NCBI GenBank assembly: GCA_017547545.1
Contig: JAFYPJ010000027.1
Location: forward strand, 1-59,812
DNA: 59,812 bases
Direction of reading: 5' to 3'
Source: Clostridia bacterium
GTDB lineage: Bacteria; Bacillota; Clostridia; Oscillospirales; CAG-272
This document shows, one piece after another, positions 9,541 to 32,166 of the stretch. The notes under the pieces were generated by a model that did no database searches, was not told the origin of the DNA, and saw nothing but the letters and a program-made list of their open reading frames with translations. A program made the position numbers and the translations under genes. Within the stretch, counting starts at the first letter, position 1; every line of letters starts with the position of its first letter.

Positions 9541-9625
9541 GCTCAAAGTGGTGTACTGTTCATTCTTTTGTCACCTGTTCATCACTTTCAAATTTTACAA
9601 TAATAAGGAAGGGGGCAGCATAATA

Positions 9626-11018: not shown

Positions 11019-11019
11019 T

Positions 11020-16635: not shown

Positions 16636-18018
16636 ATGAACAGAATGAAGTACAGTATTGTTCTGCGTTTTGTAAAGATATTGAATGTGCTTATGATTAC
16701 GGCGCCGTTTTCTTTGGCATGGTTTTTATATTATACAAATAACGGAAAGCCTGATACCGTTGGTATATGGGGAGAAATTGCTTTAATTGGAATGCTTATG
16801 TTTTTATATGTAGCATTTGCCCGTGTCTATGATGCTTTTATGATCTCTTCAAGCAGAATATCGGAAATGATATTCAGCCAGGTTCTTTCTGCATTTATCA
16901 GCGATTCTCTTGTTTTTGTGGTAGTATGGCTTTTAATGCCTAAGTTCCCCAATGTTATTCCCATTCTTTTGACCTTTGCTACGCAAGCTGTTATATCCGC
17001 ATTATGGTGTCTTATATCCCATAAGCTCTATTTTGCCGTAGTTCCGCCGAGGCGTTCGGCAATAATTTATGATATACGTGAGGATTTCAGACATCTCATC
17101 AGCGAATACGGTCTTGAAAAAAAGTATAAGGTTGAGCTTGTGCTCAAGGATGACGAATGCCTTGAAAATCTTGATACTTTAAAAGGTATGGAAACCGTAT
17201 TTTTGATCGGTATTTCAAGCTCTAACCGAAACGATATCCTTAAATATTGTATAGACAATTGTATTCAGGTATATCTTATTCCTCTTATAAGTGATGTTCT
17301 TTTAAGCGGTGCAAAGCAAAGACATATGTTCCATCTTCCCATGCTCCGTACAGAAAGATATAACCCCAGTCCCGAATATCTCTTTTTCAAACGCTTGTTT
17401 GATATAGTAAGCAGTCTTTCGGTTCTTATCCTTGTTTCGCCTTTGCTTTTAGTTACGGCTGTAGCAATAAAGCTGTGTGATTGGGGCCCTGTATTCTATA
17501 AGCAGCGTCGCATGACCAAGGACGGCAGGGTGTTTAATGTGCTGAAATTCAGATCTATGCGTGTGGATGCGGAAAAGGACGGTGTAGCCCGTCTTTCTAC
17601 AGGTACAAAGGATAACAGAGTAACTCCTGTCGGAAAGATAATCCGTAAGTTCAGAATAGATGAGCTTCCTCAGTTATTCAACATTTTAGGCGGCAGCATG
17701 AGTGTTGTGGGACCCCGTCCCGAACGCCCCGAAATTGCGGCTCAGTATGAAGAAGATCTCCCCGAATTCCGCCTTCGCTTACAGGCAAAAGCAGGTCTTA
17801 CGGGATATGCCCAGGTATACGGAAAGTATAACACAACTCCCATAGACAAGCTGAAGATGGACCTTATGTACATATCCAACCCCGGATTTTTAACAGATCT
17901 TTCTCTTATTTTTGCAACTATAAAGATTCTGTTTGTGCCCGAAAGCACAGAGGGAGTTGCGGAGGGACAGGTTACCGCATCTTCTAATAACGAGAAAAAA
18001 GAAAAACAAAATGTATAA
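16636..18018 (+). CDS. polyprenyl-phosphate hexose-1-phosphate transferase (WbaP/EpsL-type bacterial sugar transferase)
   Basis: N-terminal TM helices and the C-terminal sugar-transferase domain (FKRLFDIVSSL...PVFYKQRRMTKDGRVFNVLKFRSM...DELPQLFNIL...SVVGPRP). The ATG at 16636 is preferred because of the G-rich RBS upstream. Confidence 0.85.
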   Translation: MNRMKYSIVLRFVKILNVLMITAPFSLAWFLYYTNNGKPDTVGIWGEIALIGMLMFLYVAFARVYDAFMISSSRISEMIFSQVLSAFISDSLVFVVVWLLMPKFPNVIPILLTFATQAVISALWCLISHKLYFAVVPPRRSAIIYDIREDFRHLISEYGLEKKYKVELVLKDDECLENLDTLKGMETVFLIGISSSNRNDILKYCIDNCIQVYLIPLISDVLLSGAKQRHMFHLPMLRTERYNPSPEYLFFKRLFDIVSSLSVLILVSPLLLVTAVAIKLCDWGPVFYKQRRMTKDGRVFNVLKFRSMRVDAEKDGVARLSTGTKDNRVTPVGKIIRKFRIDELPQLFNILGGSMSVVGPRPERPEIAAQYEEDLPEFRLRLQAKAGLTGYAQVYGKYNTTPIDKLKMDLMYISNPGFLTDLSLIFATIKILFVPESTEGVAEGQVTASSNNEKKEKQNV

Positions 18019-18020
18019 AA

Positions 18021-18053
18021 AATAAACCCGAAGGTTTTCGGGTTTATTTTTTT
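18021..18053 (+). terminator. rho-independent terminator
   Basis: AATAAACCCGAA-GGTT-TTCGGGTTTATT followed by TTTTT. Confidence 0.85.
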
Positions 18054-18252
18054 ACTATATAGGAATTTGCTTTATTTTGCGAGATTGAAAGATTGGTTAA
18101 TTATTAAAGATTTGGGCACAGCACTTGCTGCTTTAAGGAGAAAAATCTTTTTCTTGCACAACTTTGTTAAAAATTATACAAATAAACTAAAATGCAAAAG
18201 AGTTTTTTTCACTTTTTGTAAATATTTTTTAGTATAAAAATGGTCTAAACCC

Positions 18253-18281
18253 TTGATTATTATTGAAAAATGTGATAAAAT
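18253..18281 (+). promoter_or_regulatory. candidate promoter of the mdh-fumC-hdr-flx-frd operon (TTGATT-17-TGaTAAAAT)
   Basis: -35 at 18253-18258 and an extended -10 at 18273-18281, 72 nt upstream of the ATG at 18353. Confidence 0.4.
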
Positions 18282-18352
18282 AAAATGATTAGTTATTTAT
18301 TTAACGAATTTGTGAATAAGCCTAATAAAATAAATGAAATGAGGACTTTTAA

Positions 18353-19303
18353 ATGAACAAGATTACCATTATCGGCTCCGGAAGCGTAGGATCTACCATT
18401 GCATACACCATGATAGTTCAGGGCATTGCATCCGAAATCGTTATGATAGATATCAATGGCGAAAAAGCAGTGGGTGAAGCTCTTGATATCAGACAGGGTA
18501 TTCCGTTTTGTTCCCCCGCAACAGTATATGCAGGCTCCTACAGTGATGCAAAGGGTTCAGACATAGTTGTAATTACTTCCGGTATTCCGAGAAAGGCCGG
18601 TCAGTCCCGTCTTGATCTTGCTCAGATCAATGTGGATATGATTAAAACCGTTTCTACGGAAATTGTTAAGTATGCTCCCGATGCTACCTATGTAATAGTA
18701 AGCAATCCCGTTGACATACTTACATATGCTTTTCATAAGTATTCCGGTATTCCCGAAGAAAGAATAATCGGTTCGGGTACTATTCTTGACACCGCGCGTC
18801 TTCGTGCAAGAATTGCGGAATATTATAATATCAGCCAGAAAAATGTTCATGCCTATGTTCTCGGAGAGCATGGTGATTCCTGCTTTATTCCCTGGTCGCT
18901 TGCCAATGTTTCGAATGTTCCTGCCTGTGATTTCGGTAATTCGGTTAAGGAGCTTGGAAGTCATACCATTTACCCCGCATTTAAAGAAGCAGATATAGAA
19001 GATTATGTTAGACATTCCGGTGCAAGCGTTATTCAGCGTAAGGGCGCTACCTTCTATGCGGTTTCAATTTCCGTATGCCATGTTTGTAAGTGTATTTTAA
19101 GCGGTATAGACACAACGATGACCGTTTCCACCATGCTTCACGGTGAATACGGTATTGATGATGTTTGTTTAAGTCTTCTCAATGTTGTGGGCAGTCAGGG
19201 AGCGCACAGCAAAGTTATGCTTCCCATGACCGATGAAGAAATAGTTCTTCTTCACAACAGCGCAAACTGTTTGAAAAATATTATCAACAGCGTTAACTTT
19301 TAA
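18353..19303 (+). CDS. LDH-fold 2-hydroxyacid dehydrogenase with Arg at the Gln102 position; predicted malate dehydrogenase
   Basis: IIGSGSVGS Rossmann fold, DTARLR and GEHGDS motifs of L-LDH, but the specificity loop reads SGIPRKAGQSRLDL (LDH: AGANQKPGETRLDL). It lies directly upstream of the fumarase gene. Confidence 0.7.
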   Translation: MNKITIIGSGSVGSTIAYTMIVQGIASEIVMIDINGEKAVGEALDIRQGIPFCSPATVYAGSYSDAKGSDIVVITSGIPRKAGQSRLDLAQINVDMIKTVSTEIVKYAPDATYVIVSNPVDILTYAFHKYSGIPEERIIGSGTILDTARLRARIAEYYNISQKNVHAYVLGEHGDSCFIPWSLANVSNVPACDFGNSVKELGSHTIYPAFKEADIEDYVRHSGASVIQRKGATFYAVSISVCHVCKCILSGIDTTMTVSTMLHGEYGIDDVCLSLLNVVGSQGAHSKVMLPMTDEEIVLLHNSANCLKNIINSVNF

Positions 19304-19346
19304 TATGTAATATTATTTTGAAATAAACTGAAAGGACATATAGATT

Positions 19347-20723
19347 ATGGATTACCGTATTGAACATGACTCCATGGGTGAGGTTAAGGTTCCTTCAGAC
19401 CGCTATTGGGCGGCACAGACACAGAGAAGTCATGAAAACTTTGAAATAGGCGTTGGTATTGAAACCATGCCCCGTGAAATAGTTCATGCTTTTGGTATAC
19501 TTAAAAAGGCTGCCGCTATGGCAAATAATGCCTTAAAGCCTGAAAAGATGACAAATGAAAAGCTTGGTGCTATCTCTGAAGCATGCGATGAGGTTATGAG
19601 CTTAAAGCTTATAGAGCATTTTCCCCTTGTTGTGTGGCAAACAGGAAGCGGCACACAGTCGAATATGAACACAAATGAGGTTATTGCAAACCGCGGTAAT
19701 GAAATTTTGGGTAAGAAGCTGCTTCATCCCAACGATGATGTAAACATGAGCCAGTCCTCTAACGATACATTTCCTACAGCGATGCATATTGCAGCAGTCC
19801 TTATTCTTGAAGATAAGCTTATTCCCGCAATAGAAACACTTATTGCAACATTCAAGCGCCTTGAAGAAGAAAATCAGGGTATTGTTAAGAGCGGCAGAAC
19901 CCATCTTCAGGATGCTACCCCCATCACATTCAGCCAGGAGATCAGCGGTTGGCGCTCCAGCCTTGAAAAGGATGTTGAGCTTATTCGCCGTTCTGTAGAT
20001 CCCTTGCGTGAGCTTGCCCTCGGCGGAACTGCAGTTGGTACAGGTCTTAATACTCCCAAGGGATTTGATACAACAGTTGCACAAAAGGTTTCTGAAATTA
20101 CAGGAAAGCCCTTTGTAACTGCAGAAAATAAGTTCCATGCTCTCACCTCTAAGGATGAGCTGGTATTTGCACACGGTGCAATCAAGGCACTTGCGGCAGA
20201 TATGATGAAGATAGCAAACGATGTTCGTTGGCTTGCTTCCGGTCCCCGTGACGGTCTTGGTGAGATTTTTATTCCCGAAAACGAGCCCGGCTCCTCTATT
20301 ATGCCCGGTAAGGTTAACCCAACCCAGTGTGAAGCGGTTACAATGGTAGTTGTTCAGGTTATGGGTAACGATGTTGCGGTATCCATGGCTGCTTCTCAGG
20401 GTAATTTTGAACTTAATGTATTTATGCCGGTATGTATATACAATTTCCTTCAGTCTGCGCGTCTTATGGCAGAGGCTATTCTCTCATTTAATAAGAACTG
20501 CGCCGTTGGTATTAAGGCAAACAAAGAAAAGATGCATCATAACCTCCATAACTCCCTTATGTTGGTTACGGCTCTTAACCCCTATATCGGTTACGAAAAT
20601 GCCGCTAAAACTGCAAAGAAGGCATTTAAAGATAATATTTCTCTTAAGGAAGCATGTGTAGAGCTTGGATTCCTTACAGCAGAAAAATTTGATGAAGTAT
20701 TCCATCCCGAAGAAATGGTATAA
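19347..20723 (+). CDS. fumC: class II fumarate hydratase
   Basis: 458 aa with the fumarate-lyase signature GSSIMPGKVNPTQCE and a typical FumC N-terminus (YRIEHDSMGEVKVPSDRYWAAQTQRS). Confidence 0.95.
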   Translation: MDYRIEHDSMGEVKVPSDRYWAAQTQRSHENFEIGVGIETMPREIVHAFGILKKAAAMANNALKPEKMTNEKLGAISEACDEVMSLKLIEHFPLVVWQTGSGTQSNMNTNEVIANRGNEILGKKLLHPNDDVNMSQSSNDTFPTAMHIAAVLILEDKLIPAIETLIATFKRLEEENQGIVKSGRTHLQDATPITFSQEISGWRSSLEKDVELIRRSVDPLRELALGGTAVGTGLNTPKGFDTTVAQKVSEITGKPFVTAENKFHALTSKDELVFAHGAIKALAADMMKIANDVRWLASGPRDGLGEIFIPENEPGSSIMPGKVNPTQCEAVTMVVVQVMGNDVAVSMAASQGNFELNVFMPVCIYNFLQSARLMAEAILSFNKNCAVGIKANKEKMHHNLHNSLMLVTALNPYIGYENAAKTAKKAFKDNISLKEACVELGFLTAEKFDEVFHPEEMV

Positions 20724-20738
20724 AACGGAGGTAATTCA

Positions 20739-21530
20739 ATGAAAATGAGTTATTTTCCCGGTTGTACCCTGAAGAACAAGGCAAAGGATCTTGACGAGTA
20801 TGCTCGCAAGTCTGCCGAGGTTCTCGGTATAACTTTGGAAGAAATAGAAAATTGGCAATGCTGCGGTGGTGTGTTTACCACATCTAAAGATGAAATTGCT
20901 ACAAAGCTTTCTTCTGTTCGTGCATTGATGGATGCAAAGAGCAAAGAACAGCCCCTTGTAAGCGTTTGCTCCGCTTGCCATAATGTAATCAAGCAAACCA
21001 ATCATGCTATGCGTAATGACAGTGAGTTTGCTGATAAGGTGAACAGATATATGTCTGAAAATGAGCCTTATAACGGTGAAACAGAGGTTCTTCATTACCT
21101 TGAAATGTTAAGAGACAAGGTTGGCTTTGATTCACTTAAAGAAAAGGTTGTAAATCCCTTGAAGGGTAAGAAGATAGGCGCATACTACGGATGTCTGCTT
21201 CTTCGTCCAAATTCCGTAATGGCAATGGATGATCCTGAAAATCCCACAATTATGGAAGAGCTTATCAAGGCCATTGGTGCTACCCCGGTTGTATACGGCA
21301 TGCGCAATGAATGCTGCGGCGGCTATGTTTCGGTGGAAAGTCCTGAGCTTGCAAAGAAGAAGAGCGATGCCGTTGTTGCAAATGCAAAGGCGCAGGGTGC
21401 GGATATGATCATTACCGCATGTCCTCTCTGCCGTTACAATCTTATAAAGAACGGTGCAGATATTCCCGTAGTTTATTTCACAGAGCTTTTAGCTCAAGCG
21501 CTTGGTGTTAAGGAGGCAGAAAATGAATAA
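20739..21530 (+). CDS. hdrB: HdrB-like protein with two CCG cysteine-rich domains
   Basis: Two repeats of Cx..CCGG..CxxC: FPGC...QCCGG...CSACHN and YYGC...ECCGG...CPLCRYN. Confidence 0.8.
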   Translation: MKMSYFPGCTLKNKAKDLDEYARKSAEVLGITLEEIENWQCCGGVFTTSKDEIATKLSSVRALMDAKSKEQPLVSVCSACHNVIKQTNHAMRNDSEFADKVNRYMSENEPYNGETEVLHYLEMLRDKVGFDSLKEKVVNPLKGKKIGAYYGCLLLRPNSVMAMDDPENPTIMEELIKAIGATPVVYGMRNECCGGYVSVESPELAKKKSDAVVANAKAQGADMIITACPLCRYNLIKNGADIPVVYFTELLAQALGVKEAENE

Positions 21531-21912
21531 AAAGGATCTCCTTCGCGAAGAAATTATCCGCCGTAGCGGAGTAAACCCTAAAAAATGTATGAAGTGCGGT
21601 AAGTGTTCAGGTACTTGCCCTGCATATGAAGAAATGGAATTTCATCCCCATCAGTTTGCATCTATGATAGATTCGGGTGACATCGAACCCCTTATTGCCT
21701 CCGAATCTGTTTACAAATGCCTTTCATGTTTTGCCTGTGTTGAAAGATGCCCCAGAGGTGTTGAACCCGCAAAGCTTATAGAGGCAGTACGACTTTCGGT
21801 TATCCGTGAAAAGGGTGCAAACCGTATGACTGCAAATGATGTTCCCGCAATGGTTGACGAAGAAACTCCTCAGCAGCTTTTAGTCAGCGCATTCAGAAAA
21901 TACACAAAGTAA
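21523..21912 (+). CDS. hdrC: HdrC-like 2x[4Fe-4S] ferredoxin-domain protein
   Basis: Trimmed to the ATG at 21523, with GGAGG 6 nt upstream and an ATGAATAA overlap with the hdrB stop. Cluster motifs CMKCGKCSGTCP and CLSCFACVERCP. Confidence 0.75.
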   Translation: MNKKDLLREEIIRRSGVNPKKCMKCGKCSGTCPAYEEMEFHPHQFASMIDSGDIEPLIASESVYKCLSCFACVERCPRGVEPAKLIEAVRLSVIREKGANRMTANDVPAMVDEETPQQLLVSAFRKYTK

Positions 21913-21925
21913 GGAGGAATAGACA

Positions 21926-23920
21926 ATGCAAAGAATTGGTGTTTTTGTTTGCTGGTGCGGCAGTAATATCGCAGGAACTGTTGATGTAAAAGCGGTTGCC
22001 GAAGCACTTAAAAGCGAACCCGGTGTAGTTTATTCCACCGATTATCAGTATATGTGCTCTCAGGCAGGTCAGGATCTTATAGTCCAGGCTGTTAAGGACA
22101 ATAACCTTACAGGTCTTGTTATCTGCTCCTGTTCACCCCGTATGCATGAGGCAACCTTCCGCAAAACTGCGGCAACTGCAGGTCTTAACCCCTACATGGT
22201 AGAGATTGCAAATATCCGTGAGCAGTGTTCCTGGGTACATAAGGAAATGCCTATAGGAACAGAAAAGGCAATAATTTTAGGTAAGGCGGCTGTTGCTAAG
22301 GTTAACCTTAACACTCCTCTTACCCCCGGTGAATCCCCCGTTACCAAGAGAGCTCTTGTAATCGGCGGCGGTATCGCAGGTATTCAGACCGCCCTTGACA
22401 TTGCTGACGCAGGTTTCCCTGTGGATATCGTGGAAACCAAGCCTACAATAGGCGGTAAAATGGCTCAGCTTGATAAAACATTTCCCACCCTTGACTGTGC
22501 GGCTTGTATTTTAACACCTAAAATGGTTGATGTTGCACAGCATGAAAAAATCCGTATATTCTCATACAGTGAAGTAGCAGAGGTGAAGGGGTTTGTTGGT
22601 AACTTTGATGTTACTATTAAAAAGAAGGCAAGATTTGTTGACGAAACAAAGTGTACCGGTTGCGGTGACTGTGTTGACAAATGTCCTATGAAAAAGAATC
22701 CCAATGAGTTCAATATGGGTATGGATAACCGCCCTGCAATCTATATTCCTTTTGCACAGGCAGTACCCAAGGTGGCAACCATTGATGCAGGAGCTTGCAC
22801 AATGCTCAAGAAGGGCAAGTGCGGACTTTGCTCCAAGGTTTGCGGTGCAGGTGCTATAGACTATACTCAGAAGGATGAATTTATCAGCGAAAAGTACGGT
22901 GCAATCGTAGTTGCAACAGGCTTTAATGTTATAAGCATGGATAAATTTGATGAATATGCTTATAATCAGTCTAAAGATGTTATTACATCTCTTGAATTTG
23001 AGAGACTTACAAATGCTGCAGGTCCTACTGCCGGCAAGCTTCTTCGTCCTTCAGACGGTAAGCATCCCCATAAGATAGTATTTGTACAGTGTGTTGGCTC
23101 AAGATGTGAAAACTGCGCAGAAAAGGGTAAGGAATATTGCTCCAAGATCTGCTGTATGTACACAGCTAAGCACGCAATGCTTACAAGAGATAAATATCCG
23201 GATACAGATGTAACCGTATTCTATATAGATGTCCGTACTCCCGGTAAGAACTTTGATGAATTCTACCGTCGTGCCGTAGAAGAATTCGGAGTTAAATATG
23301 TTAAGGGTATGGTTGGTAAGATCGTTCCCGAAGGCGAGGTGTTGAAGGTTCAGGCATCCGACCTTATAAATAATAAGCAGATGCATATTGATGCCGATCT
23401 TGTTGTGTTGGCAGCGGCAATTGAACCGGATAAATCTGCAAGACCTTTGGCAACTATGCTTACTGCAAGTATGGATACAAATGACTTCTTTACAGAAGCA
23501 CATCCCAAGCTCCGTCCCGTAGAAAGTCCCACCGCAGGTGTGTTCCTTTCCGGTGCTTGCCAGGGCCCCAAGGATATTCCCGAAACGGTATCTCAGGCAG
23601 GTGCGGCAGCATCCAAGGTTATCGGACTTCTCTGCAAGGATAAGCTTCTTGGCAATCCTTGTATCGCAGGTTCAAACGAGCTTATGTGTAACGGTTGTTC
23701 CTCCTGTGAAAGAGTTTGTCCTTACGGTGCTATTACCTATTTGGATAAAGAATTCCGTATGCCGGACAGAACAACAAAAATTCGCCGCGTAGCATCGGTA
23801 AATCCTGCGGTTTGTCAGGGTTGCGGTGCTTGTACCGTTGCTTGCCCCAGCGGTGCAATGGATCTTCGCGGCTTTGCAAACGATCAGATCATGGCGGAGG
23901 TAGATGCAATATGCAAGTAA
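21926..23920 (+). CDS. hdrA: HdrA-like FAD/Fe-S flavoprotein (bifurcating-type subunit)
   Basis: 664 aa. N-terminus IGVFVCWCGSNIAGTVD, FAD fold ALVIGGGIAGIQTALDIADAG, and several CxxCxxCxxxCP motifs (CTGCGDCVDKCP, CNGCSSCERVCP, CQGCGACTVACP). Confidence 0.85.
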   Translation: MQRIGVFVCWCGSNIAGTVDVKAVAEALKSEPGVVYSTDYQYMCSQAGQDLIVQAVKDNNLTGLVICSCSPRMHEATFRKTAATAGLNPYMVEIANIREQCSWVHKEMPIGTEKAIILGKAAVAKVNLNTPLTPGESPVTKRALVIGGGIAGIQTALDIADAGFPVDIVETKPTIGGKMAQLDKTFPTLDCAACILTPKMVDVAQHEKIRIFSYSEVAEVKGFVGNFDVTIKKKARFVDETKCTGCGDCVDKCPMKKNPNEFNMGMDNRPAIYIPFAQAVPKVATIDAGACTMLKKGKCGLCSKVCGAGAIDYTQKDEFISEKYGAIVVATGFNVISMDKFDEYAYNQSKDVITSLEFERLTNAAGPTAGKLLRPSDGKHPHKIVFVQCVGSRCENCAEKGKEYCSKICCMYTAKHAMLTRDKYPDTDVTVFYIDVRTPGKNFDEFYRRAVEEFGVKYVKGMVGKIVPEGEVLKVQASDLINNKQMHIDADLVVLAAAIEPDKSARPLATMLTASMDTNDFFTEAHPKLRPVESPTAGVFLSGACQGPKDIPETVSQAGAAASKVIGLLCKDKLLGNPCIAGSNELMCNGCSSCERVCPYGAITYLDKEFRMPDRTTKIRRVASVNPAVCQGCGACTVACPSGAMDLRGFANDQIMAEVDAICK

Positions 23921-24345
23921 AAGAATATAAGCCTTTAATTGTGGCATTCTGCTGTAACTGGTGTTCTTATGCAGGTGCCGACCTTGCAGGTAACAACCGT
24001 TTAAACTATCCTGCAGATGTTAAGATTATCCGTGTGCCTTGCTCCTGCCGTGTAAATCCCATGTTTATACTCCGCGCATTTCAGCGCGGTGCAGATGGAG
24101 TGATCCTTTGCGGTTGCCACCCCGGTGACTGTCATTATACATCCGGTAATTATTACACCCGCCGCCGTATGGCAATGCTTTTCTCAATGCTTGATTACCT
24201 TGGCATTGAAAGAGAGCGTACCCGTGTTGAATGGGTTTCCGCGGCTGAAGGTGCAAAGTTTGCCGCTACTATGAATGAGTTTGTTGAAGCAGTCAGTGCT
24301 CTCGGCGAAAACAAGAGATTGGAGGATTTACGATGCAAAAGATAA
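23911..24345 (+). CDS. mvhD: MvhD/FlxD-like [2Fe-2S] electron-transfer protein
   Basis: Trimmed to the ATG at 23911, which overlaps the hdrA stop. LIVAFCCNWCSYAGADLAG...RVPCSCRVNP...ILCGCHPGDCHY is the hallmark of the methyl-viologen-reducing hydrogenase delta subunit family. Confidence 0.8.
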   Translation: MQVKEYKPLIVAFCCNWCSYAGADLAGNNRLNYPADVKIIRVPCSCRVNPMFILRAFQRGADGVILCGCHPGDCHYTSGNYYTRRRMAMLFSMLDYLGIERERTRVEWVSAAEGAKFAATMNEFVEAVSALGENKRLEDLRCKR

Positions 24346-25328
24346 CTCGTGAACAGCTCCTTGACAGAGCAGTTGCCCTCCTTTCGGACGGTACCGTAAA
24401 TTCCGTGCTTGGATGGCAGAAGGGTGAATTTGATTATGATGTTACCCCCCATATTTTCAAAAGTGCGGATGAGTTGAAGGAAGGCTTTGTATGGAATGAT
24501 TTCTGTTATGCCAACTTCTCTAAATATCTTGTATTAAAAACAGACCGTATTGAAGGTAAGCTTTTGGTATTCCTGAAGCCCTGCGATACATACAGCTTTA
24601 ATCAGCTTCTCACCGAGCATCGTTTTGACCGTGAAAAGGTTTATGCTATCGGTGTTGGCTGCGAAGGAATGGTTGATGTAAATAAGCTTAAGGCTGCGGT
24701 AGACGGTATTTCTTCAATCGAGGCTACCGAAGAAGGCCTTAAGGTTACAACAATATATGATGATGAGCCTACCGTTGTTGCAATAGAAAATGTTCTTCTT
24801 GAAAGATGTGTTAATTGCAAGAGCAAGAAGCATGTTGCATACGACGAGCTTATGGGTGAGGAAGGCGAGATCATAGATTCTGCGCGTTTTGATGAAGTAG
24901 CAGCTCTTGAGGCTATGACTGCTGATGAGAGATTTGCTTTCTGGCAGAATGAGCTTTCCAAATGTATTCGCTGCAACGCTTGCCGCGATGCTTGTCCTGC
25001 CTGTACCTGTGAAAACTGCGTATTTAACAACCCCAATTCCGGTGTTGAAACAAAGGCACCCGTAACCTCTTTTGAAGAGCAGATGTTCCATATCATCAGG
25101 GCTTACCATGTAGCAGGCAGATGTACCGACTGCGGAGAATGTTCCAGAGTATGTCCTCAGAACATTCCTCTCCACCTTCTCAACCGTAAATTCATTAAGG
25201 ATATAAATGAATGCTACGGCGATTATCAGGCGGGAGAAGAGGTTGGTATGAGAGCTCCCCTTGTAGATTACACACTTGAGGACCTTGAGCCCGGTGAAGT
25301 ATTGAATAGGAGGGGTGAAGATGCGTAA
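24333..25328 (+). CDS. polyferredoxin-type 4Fe-4S protein (FlxC-like)
   Basis: 331 aa, with GGAGG 7 nt upstream, overlapping the mvhD end. Cluster motifs CIRCNACRDACPACTCENC and CTDCGECSRVCP. Confidence 0.6.
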   Translation: MQKITREQLLDRAVALLSDGTVNSVLGWQKGEFDYDVTPHIFKSADELKEGFVWNDFCYANFSKYLVLKTDRIEGKLLVFLKPCDTYSFNQLLTEHRFDREKVYAIGVGCEGMVDVNKLKAAVDGISSIEATEEGLKVTTIYDDEPTVVAIENVLLERCVNCKSKKHVAYDELMGEEGEIIDSARFDEVAALEAMTADERFAFWQNELSKCIRCNACRDACPACTCENCVFNNPNSGVETKAPVTSFEEQMFHIIRAYHVAGRCTDCGECSRVCPQNIPLHLLNRKFIKDINECYGDYQAGEEVGMRAPLVDYTLEDLEPGEVLNRRGEDA

Positions 25329-26343
25329 GTGTTCTCTTGAAAAAATAAATCTTGTTTTTGCGGAAATTGCAAAGGCATACACCTTATATCTTCCCACCGA
25401 TCAGAATGATTCAAGTGCAAAGTTCACTAAATGGGAAGAGGGAAGCGTGTGGAGCAATGCGCTCAATACGGTAAGAAGCCCCAAGGACTTTTTCTTCCCC
25501 CAGGCCGAAGATCTTATGGAATTTAAGGTTGAAGGCAAAAATATAGATATTACCGATATCAGACAAGAATCCGAAGATTTCGTTATCTTTGGTGTAAGAG
25601 CGTGTGATGTTAAGAGCTTTGAGATCCTTGACAGAGTATTTTTGGTTGATCCCGTGGATAGCTTTTATGCATCCCGCCGTGAGCACGGTATTATTGTTTC
25701 GTTAGCTTGTACAAAGCCTTCCGAAACCTGTTTCTGTACCACTTTCGGTATTGACTGTACAGAACCTGCAGGTGATGTGAGTATTTGGAAAACCGAAACA
25801 GAGCTATACTGGCAGGCAAATACCGAAAAGGGAGAAAAACTGCTTTCTTATGTTGATTCTCTTACAGAGGATGCAAACACAAAGGCAGTTGATGAACAGA
25901 AGGAAAAAACTTCTGTTGTTATGAAAAAGCTTCCTTTGGCAAATCTTACAACCGACGGATTCGGTGCAGGCAAGACCATGGAACTTTTTAACAATGAGGC
26001 ATGGGATGAGCTTTCCCAAACCTGTCTCGGTTGCGGTACATGTACTTTTGTATGTCCTACATGTCAGTGCTATGATATCAAAGATTTTGATACAGGTAAC
26101 GGTGTTATCCGTTACAGATGCTGGGATTCCTGCATGTATTCCGAATTTACCAAGATGGCACACGGTAACAACCGTCTTACCCAAAAAGAGCGTTTCCGCC
26201 AGCGTTTCATGCATAAGCTTGTATATTATCCCGAAAATAATGACGGTCTGTACAGCTGTGTAGGATGCGGAAGATGCTTGGCAAAGTGCCCTATCTCTAT
26301 GAATATAGCAAAAGTAATGAAGAAGATCGGAGGGGAGAAATAA
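25321..26343 (+). CDS. AsrA/HydB-like 4Fe-4S protein (FlxB-like)
   Basis: ATG at 25321 in an ATGCGTAA overlap with the upstream stop. Motifs CLGCGTCTFVCPTCQCYD and CVGCGRCLAKCP match the anaerobic sulfite reductase A / sulfhydrogenase beta pattern. Confidence 0.65.
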   Translation: MRKCSLEKINLVFAEIAKAYTLYLPTDQNDSSAKFTKWEEGSVWSNALNTVRSPKDFFFPQAEDLMEFKVEGKNIDITDIRQESEDFVIFGVRACDVKSFEILDRVFLVDPVDSFYASRREHGIIVSLACTKPSETCFCTTFGIDCTEPAGDVSIWKTETELYWQANTEKGEKLLSYVDSLTEDANTKAVDEQKEKTSVVMKKLPLANLTTDGFGAGKTMELFNNEAWDELSQTCLGCGTCTFVCPTCQCYDIKDFDTGNGVIRYRCWDSCMYSEFTKMAHGNNRLTQKERFRQRFMHKLVYYPENNDGLYSCVGCGRCLAKCPISMNIAKVMKKIGGEK

Positions 26344-27176
26344 TGAATATGCGTGAAGAAACCCTTATTCCCAAGGTTGGTGTTATTACCGATGTTCGTA
26401 TTGATACCCCTGATATCAAAACCTTCAGAGTAGTTACTCCCGACGGTAAAAAGGCATTCGATCACCGTCCCGGTCAGTGTGCAATGCTCTCTATTCCCGG
26501 TGTTGGTGAAGCAATGTTTTCCATTACCTCCTCACCTACAAATGAGGAATATATGGAATTTTCAATCAAAAAGTGCGGATGCGTAACCGAATGGTTGCAT
26601 CAGGCAGAGGTTGGTCAGCAGTTGACTATCCGCGGTCCCTACGGAAATCCTTTCCCTGTAGACGATGTTTTTGCAGGAAATAATATGTTATTTATTGCAG
26701 GCGGTGTTGGTCTTGCTCCTCTTCGTTCTGTAATAAACTACTGCCGTCATTATCGTGACCGTTACGGTAAAATAGATATCGTTTACGGTTCCAGAAGCAA
26801 GGATGACCTCCTTGACTATAAGGAAATAATCGACGAATGGGCGACCGATGCAGGAGTAAATGTACACCTTACTATCGATAACCCTCAGGATGGTTGGGAC
26901 GGTCATGTAGGCTTTGTTCCTAACTATGTTAAGGAGCTTGGCTTCGATACAGATAAGATCGCGGTTCTTTGCGGTCCTCCCATAATGATCAAATTTACAC
27001 TTGAGGGACTTCGTGCTCTCGGTTTTGAAAAGACACAGGTTTATACAACTCTTGAGCTTCGTATGAAGTGCGGTGTTGGTAAGTGCGGAAGATGCAATGT
27101 TGGTGCAAAGTATGTATGTAAAGACGGCCCCGTGTTCCGCTTTGATGAGTTGGATGAATTACCCGACGAATATTAA
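26343..27176 (+). CDS. AsrB/HydG/PyrK-like FAD + NAD(P)H-binding protein with C-terminal [2Fe-2S] (FlxA-like)
   Basis: ATG at 26343 in a TAATG overlap. Flavin motif MFSITSSP, NAD(P) motif LFIAGGVGLAPLRS and the 2Fe-2S motif CGVGKCGRCNVG. Confidence 0.7.
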   Translation: MNMREETLIPKVGVITDVRIDTPDIKTFRVVTPDGKKAFDHRPGQCAMLSIPGVGEAMFSITSSPTNEEYMEFSIKKCGCVTEWLHQAEVGQQLTIRGPYGNPFPVDDVFAGNNMLFIAGGVGLAPLRSVINYCRHYRDRYGKIDIVYGSRSKDDLLDYKEIIDEWATDAGVNVHLTIDNPQDGWDGHVGFVPNYVKELGFDTDKIAVLCGPPIMIKFTLEGLRALGFEKTQVYTTLELRMKCGVGKCGRCNVGAKYVCKDGPVFRFDELDELPDEY

Positions 27177-27199
27177 GAAGAGAAAGATTGGTGAATAAT

Positions 27200-27874
27200 A
27201 TGGAAAAGATGGTTAATATTTTTCTTTTCGGTAAGAAATATGAAGTACCCTCTAATCTGACCATTATGTCAGCTATGGAATATGCAGGCTACCAGCTTGT
27301 ACGCGGATGCGGTTGCCGTAACGGTTTCTGCGGTGCTTGTGCTACCATATACCGTATAAAGGGAGATCGCGAGCTCAAGGCGTGTCTTGCTTGTCAGACT
27401 ACCGTTGAGGATAACATGTATATTGCAACACTTCCTTTCTTCCCCCTTGTTAAGCAGGGCTACGATATCGAAAAGATCAGTACAACTGAGGCTGTTATGA
27501 TGCAGCTCTACCCTGAAATTTATGCTTGTGTTGGTTGTAATGCATGTACCAAGGCTTGTACACAGAGCCTTAATGTAATGCAGTATATCGCATACGCTCA
27601 ACGCGGTGATTTTGAAAACTGTGCCGAAGAGTCCTTTGACTGTGTAATGTGCGGTGTATGTTCCTCCCGTTGTCCTGCAGGTATTTCTCATCCTCAGGTT
27701 GCAATGCTTGCTCGCCGTATCAACGGTAAGTATCTTGCTCCCGGATGCGGACACCTTGAAGACAGAGTTAAGGAAATTAAAGACGGTGAATTCACCGAGC
27801 TTATCGAAGCTCTTATGCAGAAGCCTGTTGAAGAACTCAAAGAGCTTTACAATACCCGTGAAATAGAGAAATAA
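27200..27874 (+). CDS. succinate dehydrogenase/fumarate reductase iron-sulfur subunit-like protein
   Basis: N-terminal plant-type 2Fe-2S (CGCRNGFCGACATIY...CLAC), then CVGCNACTKAC and CVMCGVCSSRCP. The start is either ATG 27200 or ATG 27209 and the RBS is weak. Confidence 0.7.
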   Translation: MEKMVNIFLFGKKYEVPSNLTIMSAMEYAGYQLVRGCGCRNGFCGACATIYRIKGDRELKACLACQTTVEDNMYIATLPFFPLVKQGYDIEKISTTEAVMMQLYPEIYACVGCNACTKACTQSLNVMQYIAYAQRGDFENCAEESFDCVMCGVCSSRCPAGISHPQVAMLARRINGKYLAPGCGHLEDRVKEIKDGEFTELIEALMQKPVEELKELYNTREIEK

Positions 27875-27887
27875 GGAGGGAATTACG

Positions 27888-29492
27888 ATGTATTCTGAAT
27901 TTTATAAAGAATCCCTTGAAGCGGTTGCGGCTGCAAGAGCCGAAAATATTGCTATGGAGCCTCAGAGAATGACCGCAGAGCAGAAGGAAACCCTTCTTAA
28001 AACATATCACCCCGACTACCGTGAGGATCAGTTCTCTGAACTCAAGGTTGGTCCCAATAAGGGTGATAAAGTACCCCATGAGCTTTGTGCTATGCTTGAA
28101 GCTCATTCCAGAATTACAGCAGACTGTGTAGACCTTACAAAGCCCGACTACGAAACTGATGTTCTCGTTATCGGTGGCGGCGGTGCAGGTACATCTGCTG
28201 CAATCGAAGCTCACGAGGCGGGCGCTGATGTAATGATTGTTACCAAGCTCCGTATGGGTGATGCTAACACCATGATGGCAGAGGGTGGTATTCAGGCGGC
28301 TGATAAGCCTAACGATTCTCCTGCTATTCACTTTGTAGACGCATTCGGCGGCGGTCACTTTGCTGCAAAGCGTGACCTTTTGGCAAAGCTCGTTTGCGAT
28401 GCTCCCGAAGCTATACAGTGGCTCTCCAACCTCGGTGTTGAATTTGATAAGGAAGCAGACGGTACTATGGTTACAACCCACGGTGGCGGTACTTCCAGAA
28501 AGCGTATGCATGCAGCAAAGGATTACTCCGGCGCTGAAATCATGAGAACTCTCCGTGATGAGGTTCTTAACAGAAATATCCCCGTAGTAGATTTCACCGC
28601 AGCTATTGAGCTTATTCTTGATGATAAGGGTAATGCTGCCGGTGCGGTTCTTATGAATATGGAAACAAAGGAACTCATGGTTGCAAAGGCAAAGACCGTT
28701 GTTATCGCAACAGGTGGTGCAGGCCGTATGCATTACCAGGGATTCCCCACCTCCAATCATTACGGTGCAACTGCCGACGGTCTTGTTTTAGGTTACCGTG
28801 CAGGTGCAAAGCTCCTCTATGCTGAAACCCTTCAGTATCATCCTACCGGTGCTGCTCACCCTGAACAGATCTTTGGTGCACTTGTTACCGAAAAGGTTCG
28901 TTCTCTCGGTGCTAAGCTGGTTAACAGAGACGGTAAGGTGTTCATGCATCCCCTTGAAACCCGTGATGTAACTGCGGCTTCCATTATCCGCGAATGCTCC
29001 GACCGTGAAAACGGTATCGAAACAGGTAACGGTAAGGCAGTATGGCTTGATACTCCCATGATCGAAGCTATCGGCGGTGAGGGAACAATTGAAAAGAGAA
29101 TTCCCGCTATGATGCGTATGTACATGGCTTACGGTATTGATATCCGTAAGGAGCCTATCCTTGTATACCCCACACTCCATTACCAGAATGGTGGTCTTGA
29201 TATCAACGTTAACGGTATGACAACTAACATCGACAACCTCTTTGTTGCAGGTGAAGCTGTTGGTGGTATCCACGGTAAGAACCGTCTTATGGGTAACTCC
29301 CTCCTCGATATCATCGTATTCGGACGTAACGCAGGTATCAACGCTGCTAAGACCGCAAAGGATGTTGAGGTTGGTGCTCTTACTCTCGATCACATTGCTA
29401 AGTTTGAAGCTGAACTTGCAGATGCAGGTGTTGAAACCGATGCCGTATCTCCCAAGCTCCTTCCTAACTATACAAAACAGAAGAACATCTAA
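27888..29492 (+). CDS. succinate dehydrogenase/fumarate reductase flavoprotein-like subunit (non-covalent FAD type)
   Basis: DVLVIGGGGAGTSAAIEA, LQYHPTG, VTEKVRSLGAKLVN and GLFVAGEAVGGIHGKNRLMGNSL motifs. Asn replaces the FAD-linking His (GDANTMMAEGG versus E. coli FrdA RSHTVAAEGG). Confidence 0.8.
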   Translation: MYSEFYKESLEAVAAARAENIAMEPQRMTAEQKETLLKTYHPDYREDQFSELKVGPNKGDKVPHELCAMLEAHSRITADCVDLTKPDYETDVLVIGGGGAGTSAAIEAHEAGADVMIVTKLRMGDANTMMAEGGIQAADKPNDSPAIHFVDAFGGGHFAAKRDLLAKLVCDAPEAIQWLSNLGVEFDKEADGTMVTTHGGGTSRKRMHAAKDYSGAEIMRTLRDEVLNRNIPVVDFTAAIELILDDKGNAAGAVLMNMETKELMVAKAKTVVIATGGAGRMHYQGFPTSNHYGATADGLVLGYRAGAKLLYAETLQYHPTGAAHPEQIFGALVTEKVRSLGAKLVNRDGKVFMHPLETRDVTAASIIRECSDRENGIETGNGKAVWLDTPMIEAIGGEGTIEKRIPAMMRMYMAYGIDIRKEPILVYPTLHYQNGGLDINVNGMTTNIDNLFVAGEAVGGIHGKNRLMGNSLLDIIVFGRNAGINAAKTAKDVEVGALTLDHIAKFEAELADAGVETDAVSPKLLPNYTKQKNI

Positions 29493-29509
29493 TCGGAGGC
29501 GCACGAAAT

Positions 29510-30766
29510 ATGGAATTATTTGGCGGTGTTATCCCCGTAACAGGTGTATCATTCTTCCTTTTCTGTATATTTGCGGTACTTTTTGCAGGTTACGCCATAG
29601 GAAGAATTACCATCAAGGGCGTTTCCCTTGGTGATGCAGGTGTATTTATTATTGCTTTGCTCTTCGGTGCACTTTTCTGCGCCGAAGGCTCAAGCATCAT
29701 TCCCGAAGAACAGATGGCAAACTGGGGTCATTGGCTGGATTTAACCGAAACTCTCGGTCTTATCCTCTTTGTAACCAGTGTTGGCTTCATTGCAGGCCCC
29801 AAGTTCTTTGCAAATATGAAAAAGAACTTTACAAGCTACGTTCTTTTAGGTTTAATCATTATCATCGCAGGCGGTCTTGCAGCGGTTGGCTGTGTATTGC
29901 TTGGTGATAAGGTGTTCGGTTACGGTGCAGACACCATTAAGGATATTGACGGATTTGTTGCAATGATAGTTGGTCTTCTTTCCGGCTCTCTTACCTCTAC
30001 CCCCGCATTCAGCGCGGCTAAGGCAACGGTTGCTCCCGAATATCAGGGTCTTGTATCCGTTGGCCACGGTATTGCTTATATCTTCGGCGTTATCGGCGTT
30101 GTTCTCTTTGTTCAGCTTGTTCCCAAGCTTGCAAAGGCAAATATGGAAGAAGAAAGAGCAAAGATCGCTATTCCCGCAAAGGAAGATATTAAGGCTAAGG
30201 TTAGCAAGCTTTTCCATATGGACCATATGGGTATCTGCGTATTCTCCCTTGCAGCTATTCTCGGTACCTTCGTAGGTAAGATCAAGATACCCTTGAGCAA
30301 TCAGGGCCTTGAAGGAACCTGCTTCTCCCTTACAACCACAGGCGGCTGCCTCTTGGTTGCTCTTATCATCGGTCATTTCGGCAGAGTTGGTAAGATCAGC
30401 CTTATGCCTGCAGATACAACACTTAAGCTCTTCCGTGAGCTCGGTCTTGTACTCTTCCTTGCAGGTGCAGGTATCCCCGGCGGTCAGGAGTTCGTTGCTA
30501 ACTTTAACGCAATGTACTTTGTATACGGTATTATCATGACCGTTGTTCCTATGATCATAGGCTTCCTCTTTGCAAAGTATGTATTAAAGCTGCCCCTTCT
30601 CAACAACCTCGGTTCTCTTACCGGCGGTATGACATCAACTCCCGCCCTCGGTACCCTTATCGGTACTGCAGGTACAGAGGATGTGGCTGCAGCTTATGCG
30701 GCAACCTATCCTATTGCTCTTATTGCAGTAGTACTTGTTTCTCAGTTTATAATAATCATATTCTAA
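29510..30766 (+). CDS. AAEx (aspartate:alanine exchanger / YidE-YbjL) family transporter; candidate dicarboxylate exporter
   Basis: 418 aa polytopic protein with a duplicated permease region (GRITIKGVSLGDAGVFIIALLFG ... GKISLMPADTTLKLFRELGLVLFLAGAGI). GGAGG RBS. Confidence 0.65.
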   Translation: MELFGGVIPVTGVSFFLFCIFAVLFAGYAIGRITIKGVSLGDAGVFIIALLFGALFCAEGSSIIPEEQMANWGHWLDLTETLGLILFVTSVGFIAGPKFFANMKKNFTSYVLLGLIIIIAGGLAAVGCVLLGDKVFGYGADTIKDIDGFVAMIVGLLSGSLTSTPAFSAAKATVAPEYQGLVSVGHGIAYIFGVIGVVLFVQLVPKLAKANMEEERAKIAIPAKEDIKAKVSKLFHMDHMGICVFSLAAILGTFVGKIKIPLSNQGLEGTCFSLTTTGGCLLVALIIGHFGRVGKISLMPADTTLKLFRELGLVLFLAGAGIPGGQEFVANFNAMYFVYGIIMTVVPMIIGFLFAKYVLKLPLLNNLGSLTGGMTSTPALGTLIGTAGTEDVAAAYAATYPIALIAVVLVSQFIIIIF

Positions 30767-30782: not shown

Positions 30783-30815
30783 GTCAGGCATCTTTCATGG
30801 GTGCCTGACTGTTTT
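30783..30815 (+). terminator. terminator hairpin closing the 12-gene operon
   Basis: GTCAGGCA...TGCCTGAC stem followed by TGTTTT. Confidence 0.6.
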
Positions 30816-31000
30816 AATATACAGTGGGTCGATTCTTTTCATGCAGTATGTTTATACTAAAATGTGTGGTTTGCATAGATTCAATGTCCGATATATTTTG
30901 AAATATGGTAATATATAAAGAAAAATAGTATAAAATAATGAAAATTAGCACTCTGCCTTTGTAATTAACAAATAATTCACAATAAAAATTGGTAAAACTA

Positions 31001-31041: not shown

Positions 31042-31068
31042 TTAGCACTTGAATTCAATGAGTGCTAA
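31042..31068 (+). promoter_or_regulatory. CIRCE operator (HrcA binding site)
   Basis: TTAGCACTT-GAATTCAAT-GAGTGCTAA, one mismatch to TTAGCACTC-N9-GAGTGCTAA. It lies 19 nt upstream of hrcA. Confidence 0.92.
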
Positions 31069-31086: not shown

Positions 31087-32166
31087 ATGGGAATAGAGTT
31101 TTCGGATCTCAGTGACAGAAAAAAGATGATCTTAAAAGCAATAATTGATGCCCATATACGCGGGGGTGAGCCTGTTGGCTCAAAATATCTTACACAGAAT
31201 CTGCCTATAAGTATTTCTTCCGCCACCATTCGTAATGAAATGTCTGAGCTTGAGGAATTAGGCTTACTTGAACAGCCCCATACCTCAGCAGGCAGAGTGC
31301 CAAGCGAATACGGCTACCGTTTCTATGTTAACTCACTTATGAAAAGCTATGAGATGACAATGAACGAGCTTCAGGAACTGAACCGTCTTACAAAGAGTAA
31401 AGTGGAAAGGCTGGATGAGATTCTTGAGGGTGCGGCACAGGTAATGGGTAACCTTACAAATTATACTGCACTTGCTTTTCGGGGGAGGAACAGAGCAACT
31501 GTTATAACCCAGTTTAAAACCATGCGTATGGGAATGGGAAAATTCCTTTTGGTTATGATGACAAGTGAGGAAAGCGTACAAACCAAGGTTATCAATCATA
31601 GCTTTGAATTGAGTGATGAAACTCTTGAAAGGCTTGAAGCGGTATTAAACAGATACCTTTGTAATGTTAATCTTGAAAGCGTTACACTCTCTGAAATTTC
31701 CGAAATGGAAAGGGTAGTTGGCTATGATGCTGCGCCCCTTATAAGTCCGATTGTTAAGGGTGTATATGATGTGCTTAATCAAGGCGGATCGGATGAACTG
31801 AAATTTGCAGGGGTTGACCGTTTACTCCAATATCCTGAATTTTCGGATGTAGGTAAATTCAGGCAGCTGCTTGGAGCAATGGAAAAGAAAGACGATATAT
31901 TGGATATCGTTTCTCATTCAAAAAAAGATGAGATAAATGTATATATCGGTTCCGAAAATTCGGTGGATGTTATGAATAATTCTACTTTGATTTTCAGAAC
32001 CATAACACAAAACGATAAGGTTGTAGGTGCTATAGGCGTTATAGGTCCCTGCCGTATGGACTACTCAAAGGTTATAGCCACTATAGATTATCTTTCCCGA
32101 AATATCCAGCAAATGATGGATTCGGATAAACTGCTTCCCGGAAGCGAAAGTGAGGAAAATAAATGA
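31087..32166 (+). CDS. hrcA: heat-inducible transcription repressor HrcA
   Basis: LSDRKKMILKAIIDAHIRGGEPVGSKYL N-terminus. First gene of the canonical hrcA-grpE-dnaK-dnaJ order. Confidence 0.93.
   Translation: MGIEFSDLSDRKKMILKAIIDAHIRGGEPVGSKYLTQNLPISISSATIRNEMSELEELGLLEQPHTSAGRVPSEYGYRFYVNSLMKSYEMTMNELQELNRLTKSKVERLDEILEGAAQVMGNLTNYTALAFRGRNRATVITQFKTMRMGMGKFLLVMMTSEESVQTKVINHSFELSDETLERLEAVLNRYLCNVNLESVTLSEISEMERVVGYDAAPLISPIVKGVYDVLNQGGSDELKFAGVDRLLQYPEFSDVGKFRQLLGAMEKKDDILDIVSHSKKDEINVYIGSENSVDVMNNSTLIFRTITQNDKVVGAIGVIGPCRMDYSKVIATIDYLSRNIQQMMDSDKLLPGSESEENK

Follow-up and report, generated by a model that had tools for sequence, protein, structure and literature searches.

A twelve-gene operon of an uncultured gut Clostridia bacterium that may join a soluble fumarate reductase to an Flx-Hdr module

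Introduction

Pseudoclostridium thermosuccinogenes carries a "succinate operon" (CDQ83_RS03365-03315) in which a fumarate hydratase gene is followed by seven Flx-Hdr genes, two fumarate reductase genes and the gene of a putative succinate transporter (Koendjbiharie et al. 2020, PMC7282089). RNA-seq showed this operon to be co-induced approximately 4-fold at 1% CO2, and high H2 suppressed succinate formation in the same organism, as expected if fumarate reduction is coupled to ferredoxin reduction. As reported in PMC7282089, the same ferredoxin-coupled hypothesis was put forward in a preprint (Koendjbiharie and van Kranenburg 2019, 10.20944/preprints201912.0288.v1). Here we describe a related locus, a 12-gene operon at positions 18353-30766 of contig JAFYPJ010000027.1 from an uncultured Clostridia bacterium; the whole contig of 59,812 nucleotides was analyzed and is called the window below. 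The operon encodes a fumarate-reductase-type protein pair next to HdrABC and FlxABCD-type proteins, and it probably serves the formation and export of succinate.

Related genes have been reported in two other settings. In the reductive tricarboxylic acid (rTCA) clusters of tubeworm symbionts and Thioflavicoccus, korABCD and tfrAB are interspersed with flxABCD-hdrABC, and a joint complex was proposed (PMC6315080). In Cloacimonadota, TFR, OGOR, Mvh and Hdr occur in a single cluster (PMC8542988). PMC8671834, which contains hdr and frd terms, was considered as a precedent and rejected, as it describes an ordinary sdhCDAB cluster instead; PMC13014828 and PMC9044749 offered nothing further on the enzyme. 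An initial annotation of the window, made from its DNA alone, had implied that the arrangement was new. This was overstated, since both the operon order and the bifurcation hypothesis were already in print for P. thermosuccinogenes (PMC7282089).

Results

ORF listing, translation and inspection of the junctions gave 12 ORFs on the + strand, flanked by two terminator hairpins. The genes (g1 to g12) and the elements that bound them are as follows.

18017-18052, no strand assigned: bidirectional terminator hairpin with a 16-bp stem between A and T runs, 5' boundary of the operon
18053-18352, + strand: AT-rich 300-nt leader/promoter region, recognized by sequence inspection
18353-19303, + strand: g1, NAD dehydrogenase of the lactate dehydrogenase (LDH) family (Ldh_1_N, Ldh_1_C), predicted malate dehydrogenase (MDH; oxaloacetate to malate)
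19347-20723, + strand: g2, class II fumarate hydratase, FumC (Lyase_1, FumaraseC_C, TIGR00979)
20739-21530, + strand: g3, HdrB-like protein with two complete CCG motifs, 10 Cys (two PF02754 stretches)
21523-21912, + strand: g4, HdrC-like protein with two CX2CX2CX3CP motifs (TIGR03290, Fer4_8)
21926-23920, + strand: g5, HdrA, a flavoprotein with FAD and poly-[4Fe-4S] (HdrA2 model, 781 bits)
23911-24345, + strand: g6, MvhD/FlxD-type [2Fe-2S] connector (PF02662 FlpD, E 2.9e-55; VhuD, 131 bits)
24333-25328, + strand: g7, polyferredoxin at the FlxC position, 17 Cys (generic Fer4 dicluster models only)
25321-26343, + strand: g8, AsrA/HydB-type Fe-S protein at the FlxB position (Fer4_22, E 9.8e-30)
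26343-27176, + strand: g9, FlxA-type FAD/NAD(P)H/[2Fe-2S] protein (NAD_binding_1, FAD_binding_6, DHODB_Fe-S_bind)
27200-27874, + strand: g10, FrdB-like Fe-S subunit, 224 aa (Fer2_4, Fer4)
27888-29492, + strand: g11, fumarate-reductase-type flavoprotein (PF00890, E 5e-70)
29510-30766, + strand: g12, AAE-family (Asp-Al_Ex) transporter, 418 aa (PF06826, two repeats)
30783-30809, + strand: intrinsic-terminator-like hairpin, a stem with a T-rich tail, 3' boundary of the operon

Five of the junctions overlap. The hdrB and hdrC genes share ATGAATAA at 21523; the mvhD start overlaps the hdrA stop within ATGCAAGTAA at 23911; the flxC ATG at 24333 lies 13 nt ahead of the mvhD stop; flxC and flxB share ATGCGTAA at 25321; and flxB and flxA meet in a TAATG at 26341-26345. 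The remaining gaps measure 13-43 nt, and each contains a GGAGG-like ribosome-binding site. Upstream, the hairpin at 18017-18052 closes a sugar-transferase gene, and the 300-nt leader contains a promoter-like, TG-extended TTGATT-17-TAAAAT at 18253-18281. Rfam searched at the gathering threshold gave zero matches anywhere in the window, the leader included, and we therefore see no riboswitch in it. Downstream, the hairpin at 30783-30809 has an 11-bp stem with 6 G-C pairs and runs into the T-rich TGTTTTAATA. Within the operon block, terminator-like sites were in no excess (11 observed, 13.0 expected from shuffles). The flanking genes are unrelated housekeeping genes: a heavy-metal P-type ATPase and the sugar transferase on the upstream side, and hrcA-grpE-dnaK-dnaJ-prmA on the downstream side. 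Measured over 1 kb at a time, G+C content ranges from approximately 0.35 to 0.49; nearly the whole contig has a positive GC skew. The overlaps, the short gaps, the AT-rich upstream region and the hairpin at 30783 had all been pointed out in the initial annotation and all are present; profile searches and junctions likewise support the gene composition and tight packing that it reported. The 12-gene operon is a real feature and was read correctly.

The fumarate-reductase-type flavoprotein g11 was compared with its relatives through a genome scan that returned at least 586 stretches. The best 80 are distinct loci from species-level genomes with 81-89% identity, and the counts of orthologue conservation and synteny given here rest on these best 80. 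In the database g11 is annotated as "FAD-dependent oxidoreductase", and its near relatives are labelled Ruminococcaceae or Oscillospiraceae. Pfam places FAD_binding_2 over residues 91-472 and gives no match to Succ_DH_flav_C (PF02910). The top NCBIfam family is TfrA (336 bits, cut-off 718, model positions 6-419 of 546); SdhA/FrdA (TIGR01812) scores 280 bits against a cut-off of 567 and NadB (TIGR00551) 274 bits against 453, and g11 stays under the cut-off of every curated NCBIfam model. An AlphaFold2 (AF2) model built from a 32-sequence alignment (pLDDT 93.8, pTM 0.92) found E. coli FrdA as its top Foldseek match (1kf6_A, E 6.9e-37, TM 0.71), followed by flavocytochrome c3 fumarate reductases, SdhA and NadB.

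The active site is of the fumarate type. By phmmer alignment, H318, T334, E335, R359, H431 and R466 of g11 correspond to H242, T254, E255, R286, H354 and R399 of E. coli SdhA, with R359 paired to the proton donor R286. This full set of six dicarboxylate/catalytic residues is unchanged in 80/80 orthologues; across the 32-sequence alignment, with identities down to 32%, five are invariant and T334 varies. The position of H45, which holds FAD covalently in SdhA, is taken by N127 (Asn in 79/80 orthologues), and the FAD of g11 is predicted to be non-covalent. Loss of the covalent-FAD His favors fumarate reduction over succinate oxidation. At the position of E. coli NadB E121, which we take to be a NadB-specific residue, g11 has His198, again in 80/80 orthologues. 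Residues 1-88 form a helical N-terminal extension that is confidently modelled, carries a conserved HPDY...G-x-N-x-G motif and is common to relatives down to approximately 41% identity. The SdhA/FrdA-like assignment of the initial annotation thus holds for the FAD_binding_2 fold and the catalytic set, and it does not extend to the C-terminal domain, which is absent, or to the family score, which is highest for TfrA. The active-site comparison supports its reading of g11 as a fumarate-type flavoprotein and does not place g11 with L-aspartate oxidase.

The Fe-S subunit g10 (alternative start, a TTG at 27188) has the cysteines of a [2Fe-2S] cluster (C39, C44, C47, C65) and two four-Cys cubane-type cluster motifs. 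In relatives at 30-52% identity, 11/12 of the motif cysteines are invariant and C39 is conserved at 90% or more. Searched against PDB sequences, a profile built on g10 aligns colinearly with E. coli FrdB (1kf6_B, E 3.6e-8) and with many SdhB chains, eukaryotic ones included. The direct score against the SdhB model TIGR00384 is 28 bits with a cut-off of 88, and the Pfam domain is Fer2_4 rather than Fer2_3. Its AF2 model came from a shallow alignment and was too poor for fold comparison (pLDDT 59, pTM 0.44). The SdhB/FrdB-like call is therefore upheld for the cluster layout and the colinear profile matches, with g10 a remote relative that fails the family cut-off. Pfam found no CCG domain in g10.

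The NCBIfam model of TfrB spans three proteins of the operon: model positions 18-92 match g10, 132-219 match g4 and 262-487 match g3. Archaeal TfrB is thus, in effect, a FrdB-HdrC-HdrB fusion. Because the model matches the three proteins colinearly, g10, g4 and g3 are predicted to contact one another (a Rosetta-stone argument). Taken together, g10 and g11 are a divergent, soluble fumarate reductase pair of the TfrA/FrdA type. We place them outside the canonical complex II families because the curated family scores fail despite the fold, the residues and the profile matches.

The seven genes between the fumarase and this pair encode all seven subunit types of FlxABCD-HdrABC, with intact cofactor motifs and with flx adjoining hdr. 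HdrB (g3) aligns over its full length to the HdrB chains 8rvv_B and 5odc_B (136 bits) and scores alike against the MFR SdhE and HdrB models; its 10 Cys are kept in 56/56 orthologues, as are the 8 Cys of HdrC (g4) in 57/57. Residues 3-661 of g5 align to 5-648 of 5odc_A, a structurally solved bifurcating HdrA (682 bits), and g5 is the presumed bifurcation site. The polyferredoxin g7 is syntenic in all loci, at 66-80% identity. Scores of g8 are 175 bits for ShyB, 170 for HydB and 151 for AsrA, each under its own cut-off, and those of g9 against the HydG and AsrB models are 191-225 bits; g9 is presumed to be the site of NADH entry. The cysteines of the CCG, HdrC, MvhD and FrdB motifs are all conserved across orthologues. 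These searches agree with the initial annotation on HdrB, HdrC, HdrA, the MvhD-like protein and the AsrB/HydG-type protein. Of its two AsrA/HydB-type polyferredoxins, g8 fits the description (Fer4_22, AsrA/HydB models) and g7 matches generic Fer4 models only.

The nine redox proteins are soluble. None contains a 19-residue hydrophobic segment above a Kyte-Doolittle value of 1.6, and no anchor subunit of the FrdC/D or SdhC/D type is encoded in the operon. This lack of an anchor had been noted in the initial annotation.

The three remaining genes are consistent with a path from oxaloacetate to exported succinate. By sequence the "MDH" g1 sits in the LDH clade: it just passes the NCBIfam LDH subfamily model (340 bits, cut-off 339) and falls below the cut-offs of the MDH models (PRK06223, 276 vs 283; TIGR01763, 213 vs 352), and its best PDB matches are all LDHs. 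Aligned to LDH 4m1q, g1 has an Arg in the place of the specificity residue Gln102 and also keeps R109, D168, R171 and H195. The Arg is kept in 46/46 recovered orthologues, and 1y6j, deposited as the LDH of C. thermocellum, likewise has Arg at this position. Both the LDH fold and the Arg had been called correctly at the outset. Because of the Arg at the Gln102 specificity position, oxaloacetate is the likely substrate, and g1 resembles a naturally occurring version of the classic Q102R switch from LDH to MDH. The class II fumarase, also called before, passes the fumC_II equivalog model (TIGR00979, 715 bits, cut-off 664.75), fails aspartase (AspA, 462 bits, cut-off 681) and carries GSSIMPGKVNP, an instance of the GSSxMPxKxN motif. 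The two Asp-Al_Ex repeats of g12 establish the AAE family already assigned to it (TIGR01625, 124 bits, cut-off 72). It has nine hydrophobic segments (Kyte-Doolittle) and is approximately 140 residues short of the 553-562-position AspT/YidE models; the missing part is presumably their TrkA_C region. A putative function is that of a succinate exporter or C4-dicarboxylate exchanger.

To assess synteny, the 12 proteins were used in tblastn searches against the best 80 loci, all of which are from gut or rumen Clostridia metagenome-assembled genomes (MAGs); hosts include goat, sheep, yak, buffalo, roe deer and humans (Hadza and Nepali samples). In each sufficiently long locus, hdrB-hdrC-hdrA-mvhD-flxC-flxB-flxA-frdB-frdA share a strand, with unchanged order and near-equal spacing. 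Such colinearity of the nine-gene core in all loci of adequate length leads us to conclude that the arrangement is not due to chance. In most loci the core is preceded by FumC and MDH genes, and in most an AAE gene follows. These data support the view that, across species, frdBA is strictly inherited together with hdrBCA-mvhD-flxCBA. How often frdBA-like genes stand beside hdr-mvhD-flx genes was a question raised in the initial annotation; they do so in every long-enough locus of the best 80, and similar sets are published. In the metagenome collection, some related protein clusters have thousands of member sequences. For distant relatives, the cluster members looked up carry only the name "FAD-binding protein".

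More distant FrdA relatives occur in other contexts. In one 10-kb contig (L081, 811-9771), a four-gene 2-oxoacid:ferredoxin oxidoreductase is followed directly by hdrA-mvhD-hdrC-hdrB-frdB-frdA, with an FrdA that is 55% identical; no flx genes are present in this contig, whose gene arrangement is reminiscent of the rTCA clusters of tubeworm symbionts. Marine Gammaproteobacteria MAGs (L082-L084, 9366-12891) have an overlapping triplet of frdB-like, frdA-like (47% identical) and NuoF-like (Complex1_51K) genes, surrounded by genes of an aerobic type (cytochrome c). This triplet may encode a three-subunit soluble NADH:fumarate reductase. Elsewhere we found a bare frdBA pair, a bare single gene and an FrdB-FrdA fusion. 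FrdBA is thus a portable module, whose partner can be Hdr/Flx, Hdr next to a 2-oxoacid:ferredoxin oxidoreductase, or an NADH dehydrogenase of the NuoF-like type.

Several features elsewhere in the window were recorded. A CIRCE-type inverted repeat, TTAGCACTtgaattcaatGAGTGCTAA, lies at 31042-31068, just 5' of hrcA (31087-32166), which heads the hrcA-grpE-dnaK-dnaJ-prmA row; approximately 90 nt further upstream, at about 30948-30960, is a half-site-like TTAGCACTC. At 5708-9059, a 684-aa protein with OYE (Oxidored_FMN) and Pyr_redox_2 domains, similar to enoate/2,4-dienoyl-CoA reductases, has an AcnX (aconitase X) homologue immediately after it; together they hint at an uncharacterized hydratase/reductase pathway. 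A VTC-domain and DUF4956 protein pair at 9521-12816 precedes a 598-aa carbohydrate-binding protein of the Cthe_2159 family. At 42938-44878 is a 646-aa class II enzyme of the lysyl-tRNA synthetase type with an extra C-terminal tRNA_bind domain. Finally, a 522-aa ORF without a Pfam family, a radical SAM protein and a 344-aa Macro-domain protein follow one another on one strand at 47513-50951.

Discussion

The most likely interpretation, to which we give a probability of roughly 0.6, is that of a self-contained succinate operon encoding a cytoplasmic nine-subunit Flx-Hdr-Frd complex, in which HdrB is an electron wire and bifurcation takes place at HdrA. The Arg-102 LDH-family enzyme would convert oxaloacetate to malate, FumC would dehydrate malate to fumarate, the complex would reduce fumarate to succinate, and the AAE transporter would export the succinate or swap it for an external C4-dicarboxylate. 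Electrons from NADH would enter at FlxA (FAD, [2Fe-2S]) and reach the HdrA FAD by way of FlxB, FlxC and FlxD, the MvhD-type protein. The high-potential branch would then lead through HdrC, HdrB and the FrdB clusters to the non-covalent FAD of FrdA and to fumarate, and the second electron of each pair would be driven to ferredoxin (Fd) at HdrA. We propose this path on the basis of the cofactor content of the subunits and the solved Hdr architecture; HdrB would most likely be a wire into FrdB rather than a disulfide reductase.

The coupling would most likely be 2 NADH + Fd(ox) + fumarate -> 2 NAD+ + Fd(red) + succinate. The potentials are -320 mV for NADH, approximately +30 mV for fumarate and approximately -450 mV for ferredoxin, and by these standard values the net bifurcation reaction is exergonic. 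Ferredoxin bifurcation is plausible from family membership (HdrA compared with 5ODC) and thermodynamics. We also infer the physical complex, the NADH donor, direct transfer from HdrB to FrdB and the reduction of ferredoxin. A quinone-free fermenter would recover energy from fumarate reduction via Rnf or hydrogenase. More tentative is the proposition that HdrABC works here without thiol/disulfide chemistry, delivering the high-potential electron directly from the non-cubane clusters of HdrB to FrdB-FrdA with the C=C bond of fumarate as the terminal acceptor; we put its chances somewhat short of even.

Some observations weigh against this interpretation. Ferredoxin, Rnf and hydrogenase genes were not found in the 60-kb window. 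Co-transcription of the 12 genes in this organism is predicted from their layout. The retained 10 CCG cysteines of HdrB are compatible with a real, as yet unspecified disulfide substrate. FrdBA-type pairs occur without Hdr, with a NuoF-like partner, alone or fused, and simple NADH- or ferredoxin-dependent operation is therefore possible. The window operon is of a kind that was predicted and backed by transcript data elsewhere. Searches of the full-text literature, which covered few subscription-journal papers, brought up no such complex or orthologue that had been purified, assayed or structurally solved, and absence there is not proof. Within these bounds, the statement in the initial annotation that no biochemically described complex of this composition is known stands.

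These points bear on three other ways in which the same proteins could reduce fumarate. Flx and Hdr might be a mere wire from NADH to FrdBA in a non-bifurcating NADH:fumarate oxidoreductase, with no reduction of ferredoxin. The pairing of FrdBA relatives with a single NuoF-like NADH/FMN subunit indicates that a simple NADH dehydrogenase can feed the module, and NADH alone is thermodynamically sufficient. On the other hand, an Hdr/Flx set of seven subunits, whose HdrA is full-length and of the bifurcation type, would be a costly wire, its cluster ligands are all conserved at 84-97% identity across species, and the suppression of succinate by high H2 in P. thermosuccinogenes (PMC7282089) speaks for a link to ferredoxin; we regard this alternative as unlikely. 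It is distinctly improbable that FrdBA is a stand-alone fumarate reductase, fed by ferredoxin or another donor, with Flx-Hdr in a separate redox-balancing role. Such pairs, single genes and a fusion do exist elsewhere without Hdr; in the best 80 genomes, however, the nine genes are never separated, the junctions are translationally coupled, and the TfrB fusion ties the modules together. A two-enzyme system is also conceivable in which Flx-Hdr reduces an unspecified disulfide and FrdBA re-oxidizes the thiol, as TfrAB does with CoM-SH/CoB-SH. The complete pair of CCG motifs in HdrB, the top score of g11 for TfrA and the annotation of related genes as tfrAB (PMC6315080, PMC8542988) fit this idea. 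The thiol-oxidizing CCG domains of TfrAB, however, belong to TfrB, and the 224-aa FrdB of the window has none. Family searches found no DsrC-like or thiol-carrier gene in the operon. To our knowledge, non-methanogenic Clostridia do not make CoM or CoB. We consider the thiol-mediated system very improbable.

The substrate itself could be another one, if g11 were an L-aspartate oxidase or another enoate/2-enoate reductase of the FAD_binding_2 superfamily. In keeping with this, g11 is under all curated cut-offs, its NadB score (274 bits) is near that for SdhA/FrdA (280 bits), NadB is among its fold matches and the C-terminal domain is absent. Nevertheless, His occupies the NadB Glu121 position in 80/80 orthologues, MDH and a genuine FumC encoded in the operon provide fumarate, and E. 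coli FrdA leads the fold matches and TfrA the family scores. A non-fumarate enzyme is very improbable, the least probable of the readings considered. An aspartate pathway composed of aspartase, NadB and AspT was rejected, as g2 passes FumC and fails AspA, g11 lacks the NadB Glu and g1 is of the oxaloacetate type. Operation in reverse, as succinate oxidation, was rejected on two grounds: g11 has no covalent-FAD His, and its operon is reductive in context.

If the Flx-Hdr-Frd complex works as a bifurcating enzyme, it would be the first of the Hdr type shown to have fumarate as high-potential acceptor, and it would explain energy conservation in succinate-forming Clostridia that have neither quinones nor a membrane-bound fumarate reductase. 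Direct bifurcation from HdrB to FrdB would amount to a cytoplasmic "fumarate respiration", via ferredoxin and Rnf, in hundreds of Clostridia species of gut and rumen that lack quinones. Given the scale of the survey (at least 586 stretches, clusters of thousands), gut ecosystems could be forming succinate, and from it propionate, by this pathway to a significant and overlooked extent. Hdr-type bifurcation with a C=C acceptor is a directly testable case, and the idea itself will not surprise specialists. What the present analysis adds is residue-level support for fumarate as substrate, the architecture of a flavoprotein with an N-terminal extension and without the C-terminal domain or covalent-FAD histidine, the TfrB fusion argument for contact between HdrB/HdrC and FrdB, the modularity of FrdBA across partner modules, and a very wide, strictly syntenic spread in gut and rumen Clostridia.

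Compared with known enzymes, the g10/g11 pair shares with E. coli FrdABCD/SdhABCD (1KF6) the flavoprotein fold and catalytic residues and the Fe-S layout of a [2Fe-2S] and two cubane-type motifs. In contrast to those complexes, it has no FrdC/D anchor, quinone step, covalent-FAD His or Succ_DH_flav_C, and both C-terminal cluster motifs of g10 have four Cys whereas SdhB has a 3-Cys motif. Like Methanothermobacter TfrAB (Heim et al. 1998, cited in PMC6315080), the pair is soluble and anchor-less with a predicted non-covalent flavin; TfrA is the top family for g11, and TfrB is colinear with g10, g4 and g3. The two differ in that the CCG module of the window is on a separate HdrB inside an HdrABC/Flx set, g11 is without the C-terminal third of TfrA and is extended at the N-terminus, and the donor is presumably NADH instead of CoM-SH/CoB-SH.

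With Desulfovibrio vulgaris FlxABCD-HdrABC (Ramos et al. 2015, cited in PMC7282089 and PMC6315080), the window has all seven subunit types in common. Its gene order is reversed (hdrBCA-flxDCBA) and it has no DsrC-type disulfide acceptor; frdBA is attached instead, with fumarate as the proposed high-potential acceptor. The clusters of tubeworm symbionts, Thioflavicoccus and Cloacimonadota likewise have fumarate-reductase-type genes within hdr/flx or hdr/mvh sets; those were proposed to serve autotrophic CO2 fixation, whereas the window has a fermentative branch from oxaloacetate to succinate and a transporter. The P. thermosuccinogenes operon, likened here by its published description since the genome is not among the best 80 loci, has the same order and number of fumarase, Flx-Hdr, fumarate reductase and transporter genes, and its host is also a Clostridia fermenter. 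The window differs from it by an additional MDH gene at the 5' end and by its host, an uncultured mesophilic gut lineage.

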